64,000 nt of DNA. Origin: a virus. The position numbers were made by a program, and so were the translations under genes. The number at the start of each line of letters is the position of its first letter. Position 1 is the first letter of the stretch. Positions 43,823-49,485 of this stretch are shown here, piece after piece. The stretch is taken from positions 1-64,000 of IMG/VR virus record IMGVR_UViG_3300045131_002907. One strand, written 5' to 3'. Below the pieces are notes generated by a model, which was not told the origin of the DNA, did no database searches, and was given only the letters and a program-made list of their open reading frames with translations.

Positions 43823-46298
43823 GCGAATCTCCTTGACGGCTACCCTGGATCAGCTCGGCACCCATGGTGTCGGTATGGCTGCATCTTCGGTGAGATGTCT
43901 GATGTGTCAAACCGACCTCGGCCTCGCCACCCGGGGCCCCCACTACTTGGCATGCAGCCATTGTGGGTTCGTCGGCGACGCCATCCATTACTTCGCCGGG
44001 GTCCGCAAGATGTCCATCGCGGACGCCATCTCATCCCTGGAGATCGTGGAAGCCGTAACCCCGGATACCCGGCAGGAGGTCAGCGACTACCTATTCGTCG
44101 CCGAGGAACAGGCCAGGCTTCGTAGGCTCCTCAAGGCAGGCCGCAGTTACTACTCAGATTTCCCAGGAAATATCCGACAGATCTGCGAGGATTACGGGTG
44201 CTGGTTCAGCGAACCCGCGGGGCAGGCGGGATCCAACTACCACGTCGCCATGATTGCCCAGATGCTCGAGGATCACGACATCGAGATCCCGAAGTCAGCG
44301 AAATCGGCGATGCAGACCTGGGGGAAGTACGCGGCTATCGCGATTCCCGCATACTCGGAGTGGAGGATTGTGGGGTTCTGGCTTGTCCTCCCCAAGAGGG
44401 CGAACCTCGCCGATAAAACCCTGGCGACATGGACTTACCTCAGTCTCTACCCCGGTAAGGCCATGGGGTACGCCAACCTCGTCGGTGATGATCACGATAC
44501 CTCATTCGTGGTCAGGGATCCCTCGGTGGCCTTTCGGTTCAATATGCGGCAGTGGGCCGATGGTGGCATCAAGGCCCCATTCGTGGTCGCCACGGAGACC
44601 CCCTCGTTGTTCCACCTCACGGGTACCCAGCCCGTTTTTGTTCCCAGCCTCCTCGCCGAACGCGCTGAGGTCTTCCATGGTGCCCTTGGGGTTCTAGGTG
44701 CGGGGTGTCTATGGTACTCCCCGGATGCCCGGGATGCCCACATCCTCTTTGATTTCTACGAAGGCTTTGGTCGCCCCGGGCTGACCTCCTCAGGTATCGT
44801 GAACTCCATGATCCGGGCATCGCTGCCGCCGCATGAGGCCATGGGAAGACTTCTCCTCGCCCAGGACATCAAGATGGCCCAGAAGATGGTGGCCGCGTAC
44901 TCGATACCCCTGGCGCACCGCAACCAGATCCTGACCTACTTTGAGGGCGCCGATCTCCGGGATCTCAAAGCACTCTTTGTTACCGACGATGCCCCGCGTT
45001 CCGTGGACATCGATGGTAAGATTATCACGGAACGCAGCGATGGCTGGTACCACGGCAACTCCCTGATCTCATCAGTGATCCTGGTAATCAAGGAGATCAC
45101 CACGGATCCCGTGAAGAAAACCCATGTGGCCTCGGGAACCCTGACCTTCAAAGGGAAGACCTGGAATCTTGATGCAGATTACGATGCCCTCAGGAAGAAC
45201 CCGGCGAAATGGATCGAGGACTTCATCTTGCTCAGGAGTGGCAACGACATCCCGTTTATGAAGCCGGCGTGGGCGCGTGAGCTCCTCAGAATCGCAGCCG
45301 CATTCAATGCCCCGACGAGATCCACATTGGCAGCGACCTATGGGTGGCAGCGGGATTCCGGGGTGCTCTGCATGCCCCACTTCTCCGTGCTGCCCTCTGG
45401 GGTAGTCATGACGGAATCCCGGCTCAGCGGACCCCAGATCCAGGCCCCAGTCAACCTGGGATCCCGGCAATGGGCGGCCTGGGATTACGTCGAGTTCGCC
45501 ACGATGGCAGTCGTTCTCACCGGTAACCTGATGCGGACCCGTGAGGGCCTCGGGGGCACCGGGATCGTGGTCCACAGTGCCCAGCACGTCGTCGAGAAGG
45601 TTGCTGGGGTCCTCGGGATCCACGTGGTCACCGATCCCGACGCCGGCGCCCTGGCCAGGCACGCCGAGAACCCCCTGGTGATGCCGGTGACCTGGAGTTC
45701 CCAGGAAGTCATGGAAGCCGCCTTGAAGCCCCATGGTCCCAAGAACATCTTGGTCTCCGCGGATCGCCTCCAGCACAAGCTGCTCAGGTTGCATCCGGGG
45801 TGGGCATGTCTGGATATCTACGATGTCCCCTGCGTCGAGAACCTGAACACGATATTCCTACTCCTCCCCGATCTCCTCACGAAATCGAAGTCGGGGTTTG
45901 ACACCAACCCAGTTGGATTCTACAGCAGGGTCGCCGGGGATCTCGCCAATGCCTTGCGTGCCCGGAAAGTGGATCCCGCTGCGGTGCTCCAAGCGGGCTC
46001 CGACCTCGGCAGGGTGTTTGCGACCCCAGATAACTCGGGTGGGCTTGTCCTCGCCCACCTCTGGAGCGGGGTCGACGCCGGGGGGCTCCACGTCGAAACC
46101 AAAGAAGGCGTCGTCGTCTTCAACCGCACCGAGGTTTCCAGGCTGTTTATGACCCCTGGGCTGCCCAGGCTGGAAATGGCGTTCATTGAGCGCCTCCTGA
46201 TCCGGGCCAACCTCCTGGTCAAGAATACCCCCACGGAATGGGGTATCGAGGAACGCACCCTGAATATCTATTCCTCGATATTCATTGAAACCACTTAA
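43821..46298 (+). CDS. Primase-like protein with N-terminal Zn finger, apparently degenerate
   Basis: CLMC...CSHCGFVGDAIHYFAGVRKMSIADAI resembles the DnaG zinc-binding domain. No clear TOPRIM acidic motifs. Start uncertain. Confidence 0.55.
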   Translation: MRISLTATLDQLGTHGVGMAASSVRCLMCQTDLGLATRGPHYLACSHCGFVGDAIHYFAGVRKMSIADAISSLEIVEAVTPDTRQEVSDYLFVAEEQARLRRLLKAGRSYYSDFPGNIRQICEDYGCWFSEPAGQAGSNYHVAMIAQMLEDHDIEIPKSAKSAMQTWGKYAAIAIPAYSEWRIVGFWLVLPKRANLADKTLATWTYLSLYPGKAMGYANLVGDDHDTSFVVRDPSVAFRFNMRQWADGGIKAPFVVATETPSLFHLTGTQPVFVPSLLAERAEVFHGALGVLGAGCLWYSPDARDAHILFDFYEGFGRPGLTSSGIVNSMIRASLPPHEAMGRLLLAQDIKMAQKMVAAYSIPLAHRNQILTYFEGADLRDLKALFVTDDAPRSVDIDGKIITERSDGWYHGNSLISSVILVIKEITTDPVKKTHVASGTLTFKGKTWNLDADYDALRKNPAKWIEDFILLRSGNDIPFMKPAWARELLRIAAAFNAPTRSTLAATYGWQRDSGVLCMPHFSVLPSGVVMTESRLSGPQIQAPVNLGSRQWAAWDYVEFATMAVVLTGNLMRTREGLGGTGIVVHSAQHVVEKVAGVLGIHVVTDPDAGALARHAENPLVMPVTWSSQEVMEAALKPHGPKNILVSADRLQHKLLRLHPGWACLDIYDVPCVENLNTIFLLLPDLLTKSKSGFDTNPVGFYSRVAGDLANALRARKVDPAAVLQAGSDLGRVFATPDNSGGLVLAHLWSGVDAGGLHVETKEGVVVFNRTEVSRLFMTPGLPRLEMAFIERLLIRANLLVKNTPTEWGIEERTLNIYSSIFIETT

Positions 46299-47161
46299 AT
46301 AGAGTAGTCAACGCTGGGAGCATGCGACCCTGTTAGAAGTTGTGGTGGGTTGTGTTTCATATAGGCATCCCACGCGAACTGCGGGATGCCTAAAGCAATG
46401 AATAGTTCATCTACCGTTATTTTTGAACATAGTAGGAATTTACTAAAACGGTTCCTGATCCTTGTTTCTTTTTTAATGCGATCTACGTTTACTTGGCGTA
46501 ATTCTCTTTTGACACGTGCTGCCTCTCGCCGTGCCTCCCTTGTTTCTTTTTTAATGCGATCTACGTTTACTTGGCGTAATTCTCTTTTGACACGTGCTGC
46601 CTCTCGCCGTGCCTCCCTTTTAGTATTAGCGGCTTTTTTAAGCGCATCTCTTTTAATACGTGTGGCTTCTCTTAAAGCATTACTATGATACGTGCGATGC
46701 GCTGTGCGTGGGATGAGTATGCAGTTTTCGGGGCAGTAATCAGATTTCGGATCGACGCGATGAACGTCACATTCGATGTCTGCACCTTGAGACACGACCC
46801 ACCCAAGGAAGCTAACAAGTGACTCGAACTTGTTGGATATCCCCCGTTCGCCATATCGCTTTGCATGTCTATTGCTAGGGTTGCATCGAGAACAAATCCC
46901 CTGGTATCTAGCAGTCCATACACGCCTCACTTTATCATCTGGGATTATTTGCTTGGACGTGCACCCTGCTGCGTCCTTGAGGTAATCGGATCCCAGCTTA
47001 ATCCCTGCGCATGTGGCGCAGTAGTGCACCCTACGCTTAACCAGTTTATCCTTTCGATATACCTGGGATCCGCCGCAGGAATCACATTTCCCAAAAACGT
47101 ATGTCTTGTTGCCTTGTCGGTGACTCGACCCGGTTATAGTTATTCCCGAGAAAGATAGCAT
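46295..47161 (-). CDS. HNH-type homing endonuclease
   Basis: RC...YGERGI...F..W...VHRVDPKSDYCPENC matches the YGGRGI...IDRID..G.Y...NC HNH family. SD ggag before ATG 47161. Visibly more AT-rich than its flanks. Confidence 0.75.
   Translation of the reverse strand: MLSFSGITITGSSHRQGNKTYVFGKCDSCGGSQVYRKDKLVKRRVHYCATCAGIKLGSDYLKDAAGCTSKQIIPDDKVRRVWTARYQGICSRCNPSNRHAKRYGERGISNKFESLVSFLGWVVSQGADIECDVHRVDPKSDYCPENCILIPRTAHRTYHSNALREATRIKRDALKKAANTKREARREAARVKRELRQVNVDRIKKETREARREAARVKRELRQVNVDRIKKETRIRNRFSKFLLCSKITVDELFIALGIPQFAWDAYMKHNPPQLLTGSHAPSVDYSI
46460..46619. repeat. Exact 78-nt tandem duplication within the HNH gene
   Basis: Units start at 46461 and 46539; encodes REARREAARVKRELRQVNVDRIKKET twice. 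Confidence 0.95.
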
Positions 47162-47236
47162 ATAAACTCCTGTCTGCCACGCATGGCACACCAAAGATAC
47201 ATGGTTACACTGGGGCCACAACCCCCTAGGATTAGC

Positions 47237-47306
47237 CCTCCCCCCTGGGGGGAGGTCCCCCCGGGGGGTATCTAAATAAAACCCCGTTTTGTCGTATATT
47301 ATAGTG
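47237..47306 (+). promoter_or_regulatory. C6/G6 palindromes followed by an AT-rich promoter-like tract
   Basis: cctcccccc-t-ggggggagg and ccccccgggggg, then tctaaataaaaccccgttttgtcgtatattatagt, at a divergent gene junction. Confidence 0.5.
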
Positions 47307-47357
47307 ATGGAACTAAGTAGTTCTGGCTCACCCCAGACCTGCATCTCCACCACCCAC

Positions 47358-47397
47358 CAAGGAAACCCTTGCACCTCATCGTGCAAGGGTTTCCTTG
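47358..47397. other. Perfect 17-bp hairpin
   Basis: caaggaaacccttgcac-ctcatc-gtgcaagggtttccttg. Confidence 0.9.
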
Positions 47398-47415
47398 TAG
47401 TTAGGAGTCCGCGTC

Positions 47416-47446
47416 AACCCTCAATGCGCTACGCGCGCACAAAGGA
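47416..47446 (+). repeat. 31-nt leader repeat, copy 1
   Basis: aaccctcaatgcgctacgcgcgcacaaagga; 29/31 identical to 47970-48000. Confidence 0.9.
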
Positions 47447-47453
47447 GCATAAC

Positions 47454-47777
47454 GTGAAAAACCTGAAAAAACTAATGGAGGCGCATGCCGGGTTTTCCGC
47501 CGCCCTAGAATCCATTAAGGGATCTGGGGAGGAAGAGCTGGAAACCCTGGCACGAGAAGGCCAGGAGATCGCAGGACATCGAATCCAGTGGGCGCTGTGC
47601 TATACGCCCACTGCACCGGAAGCCGCCGAGGCCCGCCTGCTCGTGGCAAAGAATCGAATTGAAGAGCTCGAGGCCGAATACGATCGCCGCAGCGATCGAG
47701 GCCTCGACACCTTCGAGACCTCGGAGGAGCTGGCCAAGCTCCGCGCCGAGGTCTACCAAACCGATGTGGCGGCCTAG
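47454..47777 (+). CDS. Hypothetical small protein
   Basis: GTG after SD aaggag. Confidence 0.7.
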   Translation: MKNLKKLMEAHAGFSAALESIKGSGEEELETLAREGQEIAGHRIQWALCYTPTAPEAAEARLLVAKNRIEELEAEYDRRSDRGLDTFETSEELAKLRAEVYQTDVAA

Positions 47778-47799
47778 GCCGTCACACTGGATCAAAACC

Positions 47800-47968
47800 A
47801 ATAAGGAGGCCAGCCATGCCACCTGCCCCCTAATCCGGGGCGCACATCGAGAGCACGCCGCAAGGCGTGTAAGACCCCGGCTTCGGCCGGCCCGGTCTCA
47901 AGTCCGGGAGTCAGGGGTGGTCCCCCTGAGTCTTCGGGTTACCCCTACGCCGTTGTAGGTGGCCCCGC
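47800..47968 (+). ncRNA. Candidate structured RNA containing micro-ORF MPPAP
   Basis: Five or more consecutive hairpins, including GCAA and cUUCGg tetraloops, with a possible closing stem 47818-26/47955-63. Confidence 0.6.
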
Positions 47969-47969
47969 T

Positions 47970-48000
47970 AACCCTCAATGCGCTACGTGCGCATAAAGGA
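47970..48000 (+). repeat. 31-nt leader repeat, copy 2
   Basis: aaccctcaatgcgctacgtgcgcataaagga. Confidence 0.9.
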
Positions 48001-48007
48001 AATCACC

Positions 48008-48382
48008 ATGTCTAGTCTCGAATGCCTTTTAGCAAGTCATGAAGACCTGGTAGCCGCGCTGCCGGGATGTCCTGACATCGCCTTCCGCGAGGCTCTGTGC
48101 CTTGTTGAAGACACCGTGGCGCGCTGCGAACGCGCCGTCGGGTTGAAGCCTGGACTGAAGGGGATGCCCCACTGGGAACAACGCCTCACCTTCGCCAATG
48201 GCGTTGTTCGCGGTGCAGAGACGTCTCTGCTCCGCAAAAAAGGAACACCTGGCTACAACCAACGCAGTGAGGCCTGGGTTCGTGGTCGCAAGGCGATGAT
48301 CGCCCAGACCACCAAGGCGGTGACCCATGCGGCTCGCCTGTACATGGAAGTAGTACGCCACAACCGCGGCGTCCTCCCATGA
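48008..48382 (+). CDS. Hypothetical small protein
   Basis: ATG after SD aaagga. Confidence 0.7.
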   Translation: MSSLECLLASHEDLVAALPGCPDIAFREALCLVEDTVARCERAVGLKPGLKGMPHWEQRLTFANGVVRGAETSLLRKKGTPGYNQRSEAWVRGRKAMIAQTTKAVTHAARLYMEVVRHNRGVLP

Positions 48383-48582
48383 AAGGGACACTCATCAAAG
48401 CTGCGTACAACTGTGCTGCCATGGCAGGTATCGCAGTTGTGACCACAATCATCGCCTGCGCTGTTGTTGGCATCAATGCCGACAACAGCGCATTCACGGA
48501 TCTGGTGATCGCTGCCATTGGCGGCGGCATCACCATTGGAGGCCTCGTCACCGCATTTGGTGGCGATGTCCGCATTATCTAA
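48379..48582 (+). CDS. Small two-TM membrane protein
   Basis: Two hydrophobic segments; ATGA coupling. Confidence 0.65.
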   Translation: MKGTLIKAAYNCAAMAGIAVVTTIIACAVVGINADNSAFTDLVIAAIGGGITIGGLVTAFGGDVRII

Positions 48583-48621
48583 CCCCCTCACGGCGCCATA
48601 GCCGCGCCCAAGGAGTATATC

Positions 48622-49485
48622 ATGGAAAAGTTAATTTATACAAATTCCATCTGCCCCCGTCGTGACGACGTCGGGGCACTCCGCAGCCTCGCTGCGGAAA
48701 CCATGAAGAAGGGGCTCATCAGCCGTACCCCAGGGGTCCAGATCGGGAGTGATCTCCTGCTCCGGGCTTCCGGGGCCAAGAAGATCGTGTCCAGGCCGGT
48801 CGAATCCGGGAAGGTCAAACTCCCCAACATCGGGAAGCTGACCGTTTACAAGGTCTACGCCGATGGTGTCGACCTCGGGTACCAGGTCTCGGAGACCGAT
48901 GCCGAGGGCCATGAGACCTTGGTCGGCGAAAGGGTGCGAACCCTGGAAGCCGGCAAGGCCTTTGCCAAGAACACGGGCGCCCCCGAGAGCAATCAGTTCG
49001 TGGCCTTGTGGGCATCTCACCACATTGTCCATGCCACCCGGCGTCTACGCATCCAGCGGAGGTCTGAAGACCGGGTCTGGATCCCTGCAGTGGGTTCCGC
49101 CCTGGTCTCCAAAGGGCAACCCCTGGGATACGTCGACATCAACGACCTCCCTAAAACGGAGGAGGAAGAACGTGAAGAGGAGGCCTGCGCGCTCCTCAAG
49201 CACGTGGCTTCTTGGAAAGCCTTGGAGACACTGGGGCTCCCCGCTCTCCGGCGTATGGCCGTGGCACTGGGGGCGGCTCCGCAAAGCATCTTGGAGCCGA
49301 GGGTCATAGACCTGAATGAGCACCCCGATCTGCTGGGCCTGCGGAACAGCACTGAAAGCCAGGATCTCATGCAGGCCATCCTGCCGCGGATACAGGCTGC
49401 ATTGAACACGGGGCGTGCCCCCGCAGGGGTCATCGAAGCCCTGCGTATTTTTGCCACTCAGGGAGTTGAAGCGGGGGTCGCATGA
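48622..49485 (+). CDS. Hypothetical protein
   Basis: SD aaggag; 287 aa. Confidence 0.75.
   Translation: MEKLIYTNSICPRRDDVGALRSLAAETMKKGLISRTPGVQIGSDLLLRASGAKKIVSRPVESGKVKLPNIGKLTVYKVYADGVDLGYQVSETDAEGHETLVGERVRTLEAGKAFAKNTGAPESNQFVALWASHHIVHATRRLRIQRRSEDRVWIPAVGSALVSKGQPLGYVDINDLPKTEEEEREEEACALLKHVASWKALETLGLPALRRMAVALGAAPQSILEPRVIDLNEHPDLLGLRNSTESQDLMQAILPRIQAALNTGRAPAGVIEALRIFATQGVEAGVA

Follow-up and report, generated by a model that had tools for sequence, protein, structure and literature searches.

A probable type-P5 twister ribozyme between two genes of like orientation in a freshwater jumbo phage

What kind of RNA is encoded in the 230-nt spacer that separates two plus-strand open reading frames (47454-47777 and 48008-48382) of a viral contig, where stable hairpins stand back to back behind a strong ribosome-binding site, is the question raised by this locus. 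The window, that is the whole stretch of DNA analysed (64,000 nt), comprises positions 1-64,000 of the 75.4-kb IMG/VR record IMGVR_UViG_3300045131_002907, for which CheckV gives a completeness of 35%. Metagenomes containing DNA of the locus came from lake water and freshwater, and the virus is a freshwater jumbo phage. The upstream gene (47454..47777, +) encodes 107 aa, the C-terminal part of which is conserved in two jumbo-phage contigs, L003 (171.6 kb) and L004 (216 kb, with direct terminal repeats and rated 100% complete); the downstream gene (48008..48382, +) encodes 124 aa and has orthologues with 76-78% identity in both contigs. The flanking proteins had no family match in Pfam, PHROG, NCBIfam or the ESM Atlas, the sole exception being an HNH endonuclease on the opposite strand. 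No deposited phage genome matched the locus by BLAST, and a scan of 46200-49000 for sigma-70 promoters and terminators left the spacer empty.

A preliminary description of this DNA had listed a Shine-Dalgarno (SD) sequence, a micro-ORF, six local hairpins and a 9-bp complementarity, and a check of the sequence found every one of these in place. Its impression of dense, stable folding was borne out as well, since the 169-nt stretch concerned folds at -80.6 kcal/mol (z = -2.65), a stability reached by only 2 of 200 shuffles. We consider that 47847-47908 (+) is a type-P5 twister self-cleaving ribozyme with an optional P3 helix, situated between two co-directional genes and processing their transcript (probability about 0.8). 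It is highly probable that selection maintains the element as an RNA with the twister fold, and the functional part of this reading, namely that the element cleaves and serves intercistronic processing, is somewhat favoured. The features of the spacer are as follows.

47803..47833, +: SD AAGGAGG (47803-47809) and micro-ORF ATG CCA CCT GCC CCC TAA (47816-47833, MPPAP), with an SD-AUG spacing of 6 nt
47825..47841, +: hairpin GCCCC-CUAAUCC-GGGGC, overlapping the micro-ORF stop
47853-47870, +: hairpin GCACGCC-GCAA-GGCGTGT, containing the proposed twister P1
47877-47890, +: hairpin CCGGC-TTCG-GCCGG, the proposed twister P3
47891-47908, +: hairpin CCCGG-TCTCAAGT-CCGGG, the proposed twister P4 and L4
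47911..47929, +: hairpin UCAGGGG-UGGUC-CCCCUGA, its sequence conserved in L003 and L004
47944..47959, +: hairpin CCUAC-GCCGUU-GUAGG, with one compensatory change (U-A to C-G) relative to L003 and L004
47969..48002, +: 5'-UTR box consisting of CUAACCCUCA, the hairpin AUGCGC-UACGU-GCGCAU and AAAGGA (SD), conserved in L003 and L004

At the gathering threshold, an Rfam scan of the window gave no match. Comparison with Rfam by Infernal under E-value thresholds, a check that had been proposed at the outset, returned Twister-P5 (RF02684, full model) at 47846-47907 (+) with 35.0 bits, 2.6 under the cut-off of 37.6, which is an operational threshold and not a structural feature. The E-value was 2.3e-5 on 1 kb and 1.4e-3 on the whole 64-kb window, in which Twister-P5 was the sole Rfam family with E <= 0.1, and the match occurred on one strand only. 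The score is lowered because the Rfam P5 model treats the P3 hairpin as an insertion. Aligned to the model, the element has P1 (6 bp), P2 (2 bp) and P4 (5 bp) in the P5-permuted order, and it retains the core nucleotides: UAA at 47870-72, GAGNG at 47849-53 and GGUCNCAAGNCC at 47894-47905. This alignment explains three of the five hairpins to which the preliminary description had drawn attention: the one with the GCAA loop is P1, the one with the UUCG loop is P3, and the one called T-loop-like is P4 with L4. The resemblance to a T-loop did not survive the comparison, the hairpin being the conserved P4/L4 of the twister and not tRNA-like (ARAGORN found zero tRNA or tmRNA genes in the window). 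An undescribed noncoding RNA or ribozyme acting on the downstream genes had also been suggested; the ribozyme kind holds, and undescribed must be dropped, the element matching the known twister class, type P5. What is new here is one more member, in a subgroup that straddles the curated Rfam threshold. The parts of the element are listed below.

47847..47908, +: type-P5 twister core with optional P3, from RF02684, the orthologous matches in L003 and L004, and covariation
47847..47848, +: 5' strand of P2 (U, C), pairing with A47874 and G47873
47849..47853, +: L1 strand GAGAG, in which G47849 is the conserved guanine at the base of P2
G47851-A47852-G47853 with C47899-U47898-C47897, +: pseudoknot T1, from the model alignment
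47854..47869, +: P1 hairpin of 6 bp with a GCAA loop, all six pairs varying on both sides across members
47870..47872, +: UAA at the invariant UAA position of the Twister-P5 model, with the predicted scissile bond between U47870 and A47871
47873..47876, +: GACC, of which G-A is the 3' strand of P2 and the remainder are T2 candidates
47877..47890, +: optional P3, CCGGC-UUCG-GCCGG, an insert in the model alignment that covaries with the relatives and with other members
47891..47908, +: P4 (CCCGG/CCGGG) and the conserved loop L4, UCUCAAGU, from the model alignment and covariation

The role of the conserved guanine at the base of P2 has been reviewed (PMC6154101), and the cleavage site of twisters is a U-A dinucleotide (PMC6154101); it is from this published site and from the place of the UAA in the model that the scissile bond is predicted at U47870-A47871.

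Both relatives carry a Twister-P5 match directly upstream of the orthologue of the 48008 gene, with scores of 28.8 and 30.5 bits across the two. The helices differ between the phages in ways that are compensatory: P1 is CACGCC/GGCGUG in the window and CAACUCA/UGAGUUG in L003 and L004, P3 is CCGGC-UUCG-GCCGG in the former and UCCAC-GAAA-GUGGA in the latter, and the second pair of P2 is U-A in the window where the relatives have C-G. The pseudoknot T1 also shows a compensatory change, in that the window has GAGAG/CUC against the consensus GAGGG/CCC and pairing is kept.

Pattern scans of viral and metagenome contigs yielded dozens of type-P5 twisters with the same L1 and L4 variants. A covariance model trained on UGCA-type members without P3 (R1) misaligned the window (19.6 bits) and gave way to a second (R2), built from four P3-bearing members, with which 24 matches were aligned (alignment A8). 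In A8, 98.4% of the pair cells were standard, both sides had changed in 17 of 21 pairs, and the covariation score was 0.693 compared with 0.169 for shuffled partners and at most 0.121 for slid partners, figures that lean towards the model because the nested helices had been fitted to it; T1 lies outside the model and is nonetheless 100% paired, with a middle pair that is AU in 13 members, GC in 10 and GU in 1. Covariation, the absence of which had been put forward as grounds for rejecting a selected structure, is thus present in P1, P2, P3, P4 and T1.

These data bear on the simplest alternative, that the stretch contains unrelated GC-rich hairpins, arising as terminators or by chance, or a decayed protein-coding or tRNA gene. 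The region has 68-70% G+C, at which stable hairpins form easily, and its antisense strand folds well too, if less exceptionally (z = -2.0). However, the spacer contains no terminator-like site and no tRNA, the covariance-model match is specific and confined to one strand, covariation extends to the pseudoknot, and the conservation is syntenic, so that this explanation is very improbable. The decayed protein-coding gene, which the preliminary description had itself raised as a possible undoing of its proposal, is contradicted by the Twister-P5 match, the synteny and the covariation.

The two-base-pair P2 is a property of a whole subgroup, in which UAA is followed only by GRCC (the GRCC subgroup) and which, with the window, numbers 13 sequences from several lineages. 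In all 13, the R of GRCC and the pyrimidine that precedes GAGNG by two nucleotides covary (three U-A, nine C-G and one U.G), from which it follows that P2 has 2 bp in this subgroup; in A8, the corresponding pair (2-56) is CG in 17 members, UA in 4, and AU, GC and UG in 1 each. L4 of the GRCC subgroup always reads AAGU, although the search pattern had left that base free, and T1 is matched in 13/13. Most members of the AAGU type have a P2 of 3-4 bp followed by AC, which is able to pair with the GU of L4 as T2. The options for T2 in the window are a C47875.U47903 mismatch together with C47876-G47902, or the pairing of A47874-C47875 with G47902-U47903 at the cost of the covarying P2 pair, and a canonical T2 is therefore incompatible with P2 at the GRCC spacing. 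No convincing P5 stem closing the ribozyme was found; the helix between 47818-26 and 47955-63 has the right topology for P5 and was rejected in this role, being at chance level and unconserved. The same GRCC layout was not seen in type-P1 or type-P3 twisters among the viral matches.

It is unlikely, although some features of the locus would suit it, that the element is a decayed or dead twister relic, or a twister-shaped structural RNA whose only role in the spacer is that of a stable structure or a site of protein binding. Such a reading would accommodate the score under the Rfam cut-off, the 2-bp P2 with its non-canonical T2, and the rearrangement of the locus relative to the relatives (ORF and terminator absent, HNH endonuclease gene nearby). 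Yet all core nucleotides are retained, two subgroup members (L202 and L155) score above the Rfam cut-off, with 38.2 and 38.0 bits respectively, and the compressed layout of P2 and T2 is shared by 13 members of several lineages, whose compensatory changes imply that the fold is under selection. As the subgroup lies at the edge of the Rfam threshold, GRCC-type twisters are probably under-annotated in viral metagenomes. On L202, a viral contig, a pistol ribozyme (54.8 bits, cut-off 34.5) was observed approximately 700 nt upstream of the GRCC-subgroup twister (coordinates 2011-2074 and 2731-2781).

The preliminary description had favoured a translation-coupled switch, in which ribosomes on the Met-Pro-Pro-Ala-Pro micro-ORF, slowed at Pro-Pro, would choose between the pairing of 47818-26 with 47955-63 and the local hairpins. 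The strong SD, at a spacing of 6 nt, and the AUG are conserved in all three phages, as a switch would lead one to expect, and in this type of twister the upstream stop codon generally abuts the ribozyme. Behind the leader AUG, L003 and L004 have first a hairpin with a GAAA loop, then a terminator-like one with a U-run, and last an 85-aa ORF, the stop of which abuts the twister; since the relatives' leader ORF crosses the terminator-like hairpin, termination there could depend on translation. Against this, neither the frame nor the peptide is conserved: the ORF has 5 codons in the window and 26 codons in another frame, with no Pro-Pro, in L003, while that of L004 is in a different frame owing to an indel and reads into the next ORF. 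No peptide or stalling motif and no alternative pairing is conserved among the three phages. As for the long-range helix, the complementarity exists but its significance does not hold, because a long-range helix of at least 9 bp arose in 52% of 300 dinucleotide shuffles, and it has no counterpart in L003 or L004. Furthermore, the hairpins on which the switch was built are fully accounted for by P1, P3 and P4 of the twister. We regard a switch of this kind as quite improbable, and nothing supports Pro-Pro stalling as a selected feature. The window has neither the terminator nor the 85-aa ORF of the relatives, and because their leader ORF runs through the terminator that is missing here, MPPAP, which lies outside the ribozyme, looks like a stump and, on comparison of the three leaders, is most likely the truncated relic of a longer leader ORF. 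The hairpin at 47825..47841 may be a left-over of the terminator stem found in the relatives.

Several further observations were made on the sequences around the ribozyme. A 26-nt stretch just 3' of it (47911-47936, UCAGGGGUGGUCCCCCUGAGUCUUC) is near-identical in all three phages despite diverged neighbouring sequence, and occurs once per genome in each. The hairpin that it contains (47911..47929) showed no covariation across the three phages and has one A.C mismatch in L003. The 5'-UTR box is present in three copies (47416-47448, 47969-48001 and 48580-48621), which precede the consecutive genes starting at 47454, 48008 and 48622, and each copy is laid out as CUAACCC(CC)UCA, a hairpin, YAAAGGAG, approximately 7 nt and the start codon. 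The stem covaries: two copies have UGCGC/GCGCA, the remaining one GGCGC/GCGCC. Paralogy of the genes flanking the spacer was considered as the source of the repetition and discarded, as their proteins have no similarity. Its confinement to a small gene cluster argues against a genome-wide promoter, and the box may be a translational operator or a DNA operator.

Upstream, the HNH endonuclease gene (46295-47386; PHROG, E 1.9e-9) lies on the minus strand within a run of genes that is otherwise on the plus strand, and L003 and L004 have different content upstream of the orthologous region; its orientation, together with the differing content in the relatives, suggests a mobile insertion or replacement. 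The loop of a further hairpin, CGGCC-UA-GGCCG (47768-47783), contains the stop codon of the 47454 gene, and the L004 version, CAGCC-UA-GGCUG, differs by one compensatory change. Both relatives contain a second twister, of type P1 (L003 886-954, L004 1124-1192; 63.5 bits, cut-off 67.2), situated right after a terminator-like hairpin and approximately 35 nt before a 141-aa gene; a search of the 75-kb record to which the window belongs turned up neither this twister nor the 141-aa gene. L004 also has 565 nt (1653-2218) with no convincing ORF, ending in a very strong 28-bp hairpin with a U-run (2083-2163), for which an Rfam match to a microRNA precursor was dismissed as spurious.

The position of type-P5 twisters relative to genes was counted for regex-defined members in the fetched loci, with an ORF taken as at least 35 codons. 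An SD, a start codon and an ORF lie downstream in 41 of 44, the start at a median of 31 nt after L4, and in 36/42 the stop of an upstream open frame is found, at a median of 4 nt before GAGNG. The stop and start spacing across this set points to a sense-strand, stereotyped intercistronic element. The window's own spacing is atypical, since its start codon lies 102 nt after L4, across a stretch comprising two hairpins and the repeated 5'-UTR box, and the window lacks the ORF by which the ribozyme is directly preceded in the relatives.

Arrays of type-P5 twisters at a spacing of approximately 300 nt were observed on five contigs (L086, L052, L089, L097 and L121), with about nine twisters on the first of these, a 3.1-kb metagenome contig; within an array, every twister follows the stop codon of a small ORF and precedes the ribosome-binding site of the next one. 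In addition, IMGVR_UViG_3300037067_027684 (246.7 kb) has eight Twister-P5 matches, four of them above the Rfam cut-off, and seven are clustered in approximately 12 kb (214.8-226.3 kb).

A sequence of events consistent with the proposed twister can be outlined. A polycistronic mRNA would be transcribed with the spacer included, and P1 (the GCAA hairpin), the 2-bp P2, P3 (the UUCG hairpin) and P4 would fold. L4 (UCUCAAGU) would then dock on GAGAG, forming T1, and on the nucleotides after P2, forming T2, upon which the 2'-OH of U47870 would attack the phosphate before A47871. The 5' product, closed by the P1 hairpin and a 2',3'-cyclic phosphate, would stay on the mRNA of the 47454..47777 gene as its 3' end. 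The other product, the message for the 48008 gene, would carry a 5'-OH on A47871, and P3, P4, two more hairpins and the ribosome-binding site would precede the start codon. Cleavage would in this way separate the fates of the two cistrons, in stability and in translation. The match in sequence and structure, the covariation, the syntenic conservation and the stereotyped intercistronic position are observed, and the most likely role of the twister is to cleave the common transcript shortly before the downstream gene, with a presumed effect on expression. In three metatranscriptome runs, all from a single freshwater sample, RNA contigs extend over 47702-47853 and from 47922 onward and leave a gap over the ribozyme core, which a DNA contig spans, but at a depth of 2-5x, with many other gaps and in assembled form only, so that RNA ends are invisible, these contigs were not counted as evidence of transcription or cleavage.

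Whether ribozyme action is gated by translation of an ORF ending just upstream may also be asked. In this type of twister the upstream stop codon is so close (median 4 nt) that ribosomes terminating there would sit over P2 and L1; in the window that ORF would have shrunk to the five-codon minigene with its strong SD, the stop of which lies 15 nt ahead of the ribozyme, and we hold such gating to be unlikely. Were it true, cleavage, and with it a separate downstream mRNA with a 5'-OH, would depend on ribosome traffic, and the RNA excised between the two twisters of the relatives could be circularised by a host RtcB-type ligase. No phage-encoded RtcB ligase was found in four phage records.

Compared with known systems, the element shares with type-P5 twisters (RF02684, clan CL00120) the succession of parts, namely the 5' strand of P2, GAGNG, P1, UAA, the 3' strand of P2, T2 nucleotides and P4 with GGUCNCAAGNCC, as well as T1, the optional P3, the U-A cleavage dinucleotide and a position near phage genes. 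It differs from them in its short P2 of 2 bp, in having CC after P2 where the consensus has GC, and in having AAGU in L4 where the consensus has AAGC; T2 is in consequence either non-canonical or built with a nucleotide of P2. Type-P1 twisters (RF03160) share the fold and catalytic core but are circularly permuted in another way and are cut near the 5' end; the copies in L003 and L004 lie 1.0-1.7 kb upstream of the P5-type copy, and none was found in the window or the rest of the 75-kb record. Hammerhead, pistol and hatchet ribozymes are likewise small intergenic self-cleaving RNAs, often near each other and near phage genes (PMC6765202), but their folds and active sites differ from those of twister, and none of the three scores in the window.

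An arrangement of this kind has also been engineered, RiboJ being an example of a synthetic ribozyme insulator. In synthetic ribozyme insulators and ribozyme-assisted polycistronic expression (PMC9872166), a ribozyme likewise stands between cistrons or before a ribosome-binding site, and the upstream RNA is cut off to leave a defined 5' end with a hairpin, whereas the arrangement here is natural and its effect on expression presumed.

The biological role of twisters in bacteria and phages is still open, and for bacterial hammerhead and twister ribozymes, the latter of which are associated with phages, processing of polycistronic transcripts has been suggested but is unproven (PMC6765202). The instance in our window adds little by itself, and the comparison set is more useful. 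Its layout in phage contigs, a stop codon, approximately 4 nt, the twister, approximately 30 nt and a start codon, repeated many times over in some contigs, amounts to a concrete, testable model in which ribozymes would serve as natural intercistronic processing sites.
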